Below the pieces are notes generated by a model. It saw only the letters and a program-made list of their open reading frames with translations. It searched no databases and was not told the DNA's origin. Positions 58,072 to 59,179 of a stretch of DNA of 64,000 nt are shown here, piece after piece. Position 1 is the first letter of the stretch. Every line of letters begins with the position of its first letter. Location: positions 124,001-188,000 of the forward strand of contig NMRA01000323.1 in NCBI GenBank assembly GCA_002633005.1. The letters run 5' to 3'. Origin of the DNA: Phoronis australis. Taxonomy: Eukaryota > Animalia > Phoronida. The translations under genes were made by a program, and so were the position numbers.

Positions 58072-58203
58072 GGTCGTGGATTTAACACTGGCGTGATACT
58101 AGCTGACTTGCAGAAACTGCGCAGCCTCGATTGGATGCAACTATGGCGAGAAGTGGCAGAGAAGTACCTCATCACCATGTCGACCACCGCTCTGGCGGAT
58201 CAG
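58072..58203 (+). CDS. LARGE1: LARGE coding exon 6A (duplicated, putative mutually exclusive exon)
   Basis: GRGFNTGVILADLQKLRSLDWMQLWREVAEKYLITMSTTALADQ; cag|...|gt; 132 nt, phase 0->0. Confidence 0.88.
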
Positions 58204-58634
58204 GTCCGAGTGCACCCGCGCATGACATTGTATCACCCAATGAAACATGCACTGTGTCCCAGTGAACTGTCGTCTGAGCTTGTGATCTATTAATTGGTTT
58301 CAATTCAACCTGATCTGAGATTTCTTTTTGTAAGGCACACTCCTCCATTTGGGACAATGGAGATAAAGAGATATTTGCATGTCGATTTGTAAAAGTACTT
58401 TCAATTGGTCTTAATGTCTGAATTTTGTCACGATGAATATTGAATGAAAATCTAGTCTCATGCTTAAAGAACAGTTTACTGGGAAAACAGTGTGCAATAA
58501 AGGGGTTTACTCTGTCTTTGTCTGACATATACTCTGTGTATGCAAATTTGAGTCGTGCATTCTATAGTCGACTTACTGAGACGTTAGGTGTCAGTTGCAA
58601 CATTTTAAAAGCATGTATTACGGTAATGGTTCTA

Positions 58635-58876
58635 CAGTTTGGGACAGTCTCTAAAATTTGGGACACCACAATTCAAGCTAAAATTGAATTTTGCTGACGA
58701 TGAAAAGTGGGACATGGATGATTTAAATTTGTGCTTCCCCATAGTGAGTATCATTGCGGTGAATGAGCGGTTTGTTATAGACTGTCGAATTTGGCACAGC
58801 CAATATTGCCTATTTCTAGAATTTGGTGCAAGCTCCAACCCTGAGCAAAATAATTTATTTTCCACTGTCCCGAACT
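58635..58876. mobile_element. Small MITE between exons 6A and 6B
   Basis: AGTTTGGGACAGT / ACTGTCCCGAACT inverted termini. Confidence 0.55.
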
Positions 58877-59047
58877 AGAAAATTTTTACCGTAGGTCTTG
58901 CATGAAACTAACGTCGATGAAATCACCACAAAAGAGATAGGAGTAAACCACACTATTGCTATGTTTGTGCACATGCTAATTAATTGACTACCGTGCAGGA
59001 ATAGCCTTGTCACTAACCGCCTGTTATGTGTTTTTTTTTGCATGCAG

Positions 59048-59179
59048 GGTAGGGGTTATAACACCGGTGTGATCCTGGCGCACCTCAGCAAGCTGCGCCG
59101 TCTCAACTGGATGCAAATGTGGCGTGAGGTTGCCGAGCGGGAACTCATGACCATGTTGTCGACGTCGTTAGCAGATCAG
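59048..59179 (+). CDS. LARGE1: LARGE coding exon 6B (duplicated, putative mutually exclusive exon; closer to vertebrate LARGE1)
   Basis: [51 protein letters not shown] branch point, poly-T tract, cag|...|gt; 132 nt, phase 0->0. Confidence 0.93.

Follow-up and report, generated by a model that had tools for sequence, protein, structure and literature searches.

A mutually exclusive pair of tandem exons in the xylosyltransferase domain of a Phoronis australis LARGE gene

Results

Layout of the LARGE gene

LARGE builds a sugar chain that ties cells to the matrix. The 5′ half of a LARGE gene lies on the + strand of the window (the whole 64,000-nucleotide stretch of Phoronis australis DNA analyzed here), and the gene continues beyond the window end (Table 1). 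Its xylosyltransferase (XylT) domain has the DXD, NTG, and DQD motifs, and its best matches are LARGE proteins; with LARGE1 and LARGE2 (GT8 plus GT49) it shares the membrane anchor, the stem, and a XylT domain carrying DXD and DQD. Two exons in this domain, here called A and B, encode the same segment. As stated in the preliminary description, each is 132 nt long, in phase 0, bounded by AG and GT, and free of stops, their products are identical at 32/44 positions over 44 amino acids, and the flanking exons end at 57649 (upstream) and start at 63769 (downstream). The A-spliced and B-spliced forms are both open across 241 amino acids. Human residue numbers for the two exons are anchored on Ser331 and Gln335.

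Table 1. Features of the LARGE locus and assembly artefacts, in window coordinates
Feature	Position	Strand	Basis
Probable LARGE first coding exon (ATG, membrane anchor)	44200..44290	+	Weak tblastn match to LARGE residues 1-25, E 0.82; ATG and GT donor by eye; sequence only
Probable coding exon, coiled-coil stem	53500..53614	+	tblastn E 7e-8; splice signals by eye
Probable coding exon, stem to XylT domain start	55384..55528	+	tblastn E 0.003; splice signals by eye
Constitutive exon, GT8 xylosyltransferase domain start	56182..56484	+	tblastn E 4e-39; RNA joint to 57488 in 3/3 raw-read runs
Constitutive upstream exon with DTD (DXD) motif	57488..57649	+	RNA joints both sides; weak PF01501 match below cutoff
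Alternative exon A, human LARGE1 residues 292-335; divergent, less widely used, weak splice sites	58072..58203	+	RNA joints both sides in X4
Alternative exon B, human LARGE1 residues 292-335; consensus-like	59048..59179	+	RNA joints in X2, X3, and X4
Constitutive downstream exon (DIFNA..., completes DQD motif)	63769..63894	+	Read ends behind A and B match first 30 bases; tblastn E 1e-17
Assembly-artefact duplication	60857-62957		Around a single N
Assembly-artefact duplication	18902-20309		Around a single N
Assembly-artefact duplication	1612-2497		Around a single N

Each assembly artefact consists of a single N (at 61906, 19498, or 2055) with duplicated flanks of 0.4 to 1 kb on its two sides that are 97 to 99% identical. 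The one at 61906 lies in the intron from B to the downstream exon, which is probably ∼1 kb shorter than shown.

RNA reads support either-or splicing

Splicing was examined in three raw-read runs of one study (X2, X3, and X4; ∼19% of each was read) and one contig set (X1). Reads were aligned twice, to window positions 56000-60800 and to 58020-59250, with 3 reads needed for the listing of a joint. Identity was 95% or more for exon reads and near perfect for some intron reads; the runs therefore come from the same or a very close species. The joint 56484->57488 was crossed by 4, 11, and 6 reads in X2, X3, and X4, respectively. Across the same three runs, the upstream exon was joined to A (57649->58072) by 0, 0, and 3 reads and, in the alignment to 56000-60800, to B (57649->59048) by 4, 0, and 2 reads plus one X1 contig. 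In the alignment to 58020-59250, read ends before B (four in X2 and four in X4) all matched the upstream exon among the rows listed. On the other side, 5 reads, all from X4, led from A to the downstream exon at 63769, and 4, 5, and 3 reads (12 total) led there from B, with an agreement of 1.0 in both cases. No A-to-B joint appeared among the joints listed in either alignment (0/13 informative reads). The 95% upper bound on double inclusion is 21% from these 13 reads and 45% from the 0/5 reads leaving A; depth was low, reaching at most 8x over exons, and some mates may have entered the counts twice. All four junctions predicted in the preliminary description (57649->58072, 57649->59048, 58203->63769, and 59179->63769) were thus seen, and 58203->59048, predicted to be missing, was absent at this low depth.

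Use of the two exons depended on the run. Junction reads numbered 8 for A versus 7 for B in X4 and at most ∼1 versus 13 in X2 and X3 together (Fisher p = 0.014), the single A read in the latter pair of runs being inferred from depth bins. Spliced A was listed in 1/3 raw-read runs and B in 3/3. We conclude with high confidence that the exon pair is real and that its either-or splicing is backed by reads. On the features examined other than conservation in relatives, exons A and B form a mutually exclusive tandem pair; such arrangements are known, and the gene is a new one for them. Sense-strand intronic reads at a depth of 1 to 6 were also present in the raw-read runs, at 58020-58103, 58230-58780, and 58776-59027; they are consistent with unspliced pre-mRNA or intron retention around exon A.

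The exons are old copies kept by purifying selection

At the nucleotide level, A and B are identical at 92/132 positions (∼70%), with identities of 32/44, 40/44, and 20/44 at codon positions 1, 2, and 3, respectively. Many synonymous differences had been reported between them, and this is borne out: 16 codons are identical, 16 differ synonymously, and 12 differ nonsynonymously. By the NG86 method, dN was 0.20 and dS ∼2.8, the latter being rough and near saturation, and dN/dS was ∼0.07. Intron similarity around the two exons was not significant: blastn of the flanks returned only a 144-nt exon match, the next best having an E value of 0.73.

For comparison with other animals, we examined 249 homologs, 239 with an intact segment, which gave 120 distinct segments. 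All 12 columns that are invariant among these 120 are kept in both A and B. In exon A, the retained residues include NTG, both Trp, L324, and LADQ, all of them family-invariant, and the DXD motif sits in a shared exon. When a copy was simulated under neutrality, intact frame, splice sites, and the 12 invariant residues were retained in 25/20,000 cases at 0.2 substitutions per site and in 0/20,000 at 0.4, 0.7, and 1.4 substitutions per site. The SNPs read in exon A were 3/3 synonymous (chance, ∼0.012). The sole variant read in exon B, a G>A change at window position 59097 (3/6 reads in X2, 3/3 in X3), replaces Arg by His at human position 308, where His occurs in 1/120 homolog segments.

Origin and phylogenetic spread

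A and B share two residues that are nearly absent elsewhere, Ala302 (0/120 homolog segments) and Glu318 (1/120), and for this reason the sequences point to a duplication within the lineage itself. In a tree of the 44 exon columns, the vertebrate LARGE1 and LARGE2 segments formed a clade (98/95) that contained neither A nor B; the tree was mostly unresolved, with 68/119 inner branches open, and A and B were sisters in 18% of bootstrap trees. A tree of 241 residues from 36 proteins placed the window LARGE among protostomes with no supported sister group, the closest LARGE among the 35 other rows being 78% identical. The proposal in the preliminary description that B corresponds to LARGE1 and A to LARGE2 fails, since GRGF and GRGY are not diagnostic across animals and the vertebrate clade excludes both exons. 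GRGF (Phe295) occurs in 101/120 distinct homolog segments, and GRGY also occurs in insects and crustaceans; Phe295 is no mark of LARGE2, because it is the common state and is found in fish LARGE1 as well.

Two copies of the segment were detected in 0/57 metagenome loci, a set that holds no close relative. A stand-alone 132-nt exon lies once between both neighbors in 8 of these loci (L003, L005, L012, L020, L025, L026, L027, and L051, of which L026 and L027 are near copies of each other). The exon boundaries are therefore widespread, whereas the duplication is not. Elsewhere the segment is split within or just after the NTG motif, or there is no intron at the segment ends (loci with differing intron positions: L001, L002, L004, L013, L019, L023, L029-L039, L041, and L055). 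Because intron positions vary by lineage, a clean swap of the whole segment is open only where both phase-0 introns exist. Of 20 species groups represented by several annotated sequences, none had two versions of the segment, although annotation can miss such exons. Segments differed by at least 3 residues in 68/960 pairs with near-identical flanks, which by name are mostly different species or paralogs. In the three octopus versus unnamed pairs that were checked, the differences run all along the protein, and a salmon model that repeats the motif at its C terminus looks like a faulty model.

These data bear on two readings of the pair that differ from a selected, lineage-specific duplicate. 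Duplicated haplotypes overlap nearby in the assembly, the splice sites of exon A are weak, and A is nearly absent from two runs, as would be expected if A were a decaying or artefactual copy (a pseudo-exon or a haplotype or assembly duplicate) spliced by noise. However, A is spliced on both sides in about half of the X4 junction reads, the third positions of A and B are near saturation with no similarity left in the introns, and neutral decay is rejected by the simulation; we consider this reading largely refuted and very improbable. The preliminary description had called A and B an old duplicate under selection rather than an assembly copy. Both parts hold: dN/dS, the simulation, and the exclusively synonymous SNPs in A argue for purifying selection, and there is no N between the two exons, which are only 70% identical, unlike the 97 to 99% identical artefact copies nearby. 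An ancient pair foreshadowing vertebrate LARGE2 and LARGE1 is scarcely credible. B does share GRGY and ERELM with human LARGE1 (34/44 residues identical), and A shares GRGF with bird and mammal LARGE2, but fish LARGE1 has GRGF too, other animals have one copy, the clade of vertebrate paralogs leaves out both exons, and A302 and E318 are common to A and B; the 44-column tree itself speaks neither for nor against A and B being sisters.

Residues that distinguish A from B

Judged by profile score, B is consensus-like (26/120 homologs score lower) and A is divergent (2/120 lower); the low score of A also fits a weakened copy. The best homolog is identical at 33/44 positions to A and at 35/44 to B. 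At 10/12 differing positions, the residues carried are seen in the LARGE proteins of other animals. Two states found only in A, Tyr323 (E323Y) and Ser328 (L328S), each occur in 0/120 homolog segments; among more distant LARGE-like segments, Tyr323 is present in 8/83 and Ser328 in 6/83. The differences were said to cluster just before the conserved ADQD, and 6/12 indeed fall within exon residues 31-40, directly ahead of LADQ. They correspond to human positions 322-331, at the end of a long helix and in the loop before the DQD helix in the AlphaFold model of a homolog (P0042), which was used for secondary structure and matches LARGE1 structures at E ∼1e-87. This pre-DQD loop aligns with GHLGDQ of XXYLT1, whose Gly and His presumably contact the acceptor. 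In excerpts of a LARGE1 study, Gln335 is proposed to be catalytic, binding substrate and stabilizing intermediates, and the disease mutation S331F prevents secretion (PMC9746966).

Part of a saturation scan of human LARGE1 (PMC10592615) allowed comparison at differing positions 322-331, with Tyr323 and Ser328 themselves absent from the scan table. Nonsense changes in the segment score ∼−2.6 to −2.9 there. R322K (−0.06), S329T (+0.11), and S331A (−0.69) are all labeled benign, and M325I is mild (−0.50, −0.63, and −1.48; two benign labels and one pathogenic). Human LARGE1 thus tolerates, or is mildly affected by, the four other changes of A in this region (322, 325, 329, and 331). E323 accepts D and V, whereas replacement by G, A, Q, or K scores −1.5 to −2.4, and 4/6 tested substitutions are labeled pathogenic; at L328, F scores +0.87, the other five score −0.9 to −2.3, and 2/6 are labeled pathogenic (PMC10592615, same part). 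Judging by its sequence, A appears to give an active enzyme with changes at two sensitive positions.

How exclusion may be enforced

Exon B is preceded by a CTAAC branch-like site at −35 and by 12/16 pyrimidines (a T run). Exon A has a branch-like site at −79, 8/16 pyrimidines, and the donor GTCCGA. Steric clash is ruled out by the 844-nt intron between A and B, and frameshift with nonsense-mediated decay is ruled out by the 132-nt length of both exons, which keeps double and null forms in frame. In the search for docking-site or selector duplexes, the best intron-intron duplex failed to exceed the strongest of 5 shuffled versions in 5/5 intron pairs. The short inverted repeats I15 and I18, which touch the acceptors of A and B, were not counted as evidence. 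Because none of these three devices was found, we infer a regulator-driven switch. The stronger branch point and pyrimidine tract of B would make it the default exon, and a trans-acting splicing regulator likely turns on the weak-sited A and represses B in some tissues or stages.

Discussion

Comparison with known systems

In PKM1/PKM2 and KHK-A/KHK-C, the choice between internal, mutually exclusive exons adjusts regulation or kinetics from tissue to tissue. The UGT1A/UGT2A clusters rely on large 5′ alternative first exons and promoter choice, and their enzymes have a GT-B fold. PKM and KHK are unrelated enzymes with a measured functional difference, whereas the LARGE pair is known from sequence and reads. 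With the UGT clusters, as portrayed in parts of PMC8373072, the LARGE gene has in common that a glycosyltransferase gene varies its substrate-facing region via choice among homologous exons; in contrast, the LARGE exon is internal, encodes 44 residues of a GT-A enzyme, and is picked by splicing.

The closest likeness is to mutually exclusive tandem duplicated exons, which parts of two surveys describe as rare and often tissue-specific, with conservative changes between the copies (PMC9741552, PMC8373072). In common with the pairs in those parts of the surveys, the LARGE exons are consecutive, homologous, equal in length, and used one per transcript, with key residues kept, mostly conservative changes, and sample-dependent use; the LARGE pair differs in that it seems to belong to one lineage and exchanges a portion of the active site of a glycosyltransferase (PMC8373072, PMC9741552). 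The pair combines equal length, phase, and splice sites with joints to both flanks, no co-inclusion (bound, 21%), and purifying selection. LARGE1 is absent from the main text of PMC8373072 and PMC9741552 and from one supplementary file. The author of the preliminary description knew of no such report for LARGE, and in mostly open literature we likewise found no earlier description of mutually exclusive exons in it; supplements of exon catalogues could list the gene. Either-or exons are a known device, and their use in LARGE is new as far as we found. LARGE exists as two whole genes in vertebrates and is reported to be single-copy in invertebrates, according to excerpts of PMC8478517; here, unlike vertebrate LARGE1 and LARGE2, one gene yields two XylT variants 12 residues apart. 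With the LARGE pair, a glycosyltransferase active site joins the targets of mutually exclusive exons. The finding is of limited reach, covering one protostome lineage, with no sign of the pair in the vertebrate sequences examined.

Functional interpretation

In the mechanism we propose, the exon for residues 292-335 exists as old tandem copies, each transcript takes A or B, and two active xylosyltransferase isoforms likely result, B being the default form and A a regulated one with predicted tuned activity. The helix and loop ahead of the catalytic Gln335 carry E323Y and L328S, which would affect rate, stability, or the fit of acceptors but leave the chemistry as it is. We think it rather probable, judging from sequence comparisons, that the mutually exclusive exons give two active, functionally differing predicted isoforms of this kind. 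The isoforms may instead be enzymatically equivalent although exclusively spliced, each copy being kept as the exon of some cells and the 12 differences being near neutral. This is a possibility of lower standing. It agrees with the four exchanges that are tolerated or mild in human LARGE1, with the residues at 10/12 differing positions being found in LARGE of other animals, with the occurrence of Tyr323 and Ser328 in more distant segments, and with a divergence between A and B no greater than that of many orthologs, as the best homolog identities to either exon indicate. Against equivalence, A has two states that are absent from the 120 closer segments, both at mutation-sensitive sites, and use of A and B differs between runs.

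An unlikely alternative is that the XylT domain encoded by A folds but has weak or no activity and, via A:B heterodimers, dampens the synthesis of matriglycan. Most E323 substitutions are damaging. According to excerpts of PMC12514197, LARGE1 functions in dimeric form, heterodimers of active-site mutants were unable to polymerize, and matriglycan was shorter in wild-type cells given a XylT-dead mutant. Yet A keeps NTG, both Trp, L324, and LADQ, with DXD in a shared exon, and Tyr323 is present in other, more distant LARGE-like proteins. Because LARGE1 is dimeric and a XylT-dead copy shortens matriglycan (PMC12514197, in part), A:B heterodimers would nevertheless be a plausible lever. Matriglycan length varies by tissue and sets the tightness of dystroglycan-matrix binding, and its control is partly known, according to parts of PMC9746966 and PMC12514197. 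We raise only tentatively the idea that the splice switch sets matriglycan length or acceptor choice, with A acting alone or in A:B heterodimers in particular tissues. If this were true, splicing of one invertebrate gene would accomplish what vertebrates achieve with LARGE1, LARGE2, and capping enzymes, and the xylosyltransferase site would have natural dials in residues 323 and 328. Under our preferred reading of two active isoforms, the natural pair, 12 residues apart beside the active site, offers a ready-made experiment on the residues that tune the enzyme.

Other features of the window

MITE-like elements with terminal inverted repeats of ∼30 nt lie at 57749-58015 and 58619-58893, one in each intron flanking exon A. 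They attract many repeat-derived reads, and the element at 57749-58015 has a 71% copy at 15901-16177. At 4163-7390 (+), two long open frames encode a protein rich in lysine and serine, for which Pfam gave no match above the cutoff. Its nearest atlas cluster is a hypothetical eukaryote protein, a rather close match, with a weak and somewhat lower-scoring lead to CCDC34 (37% of members).
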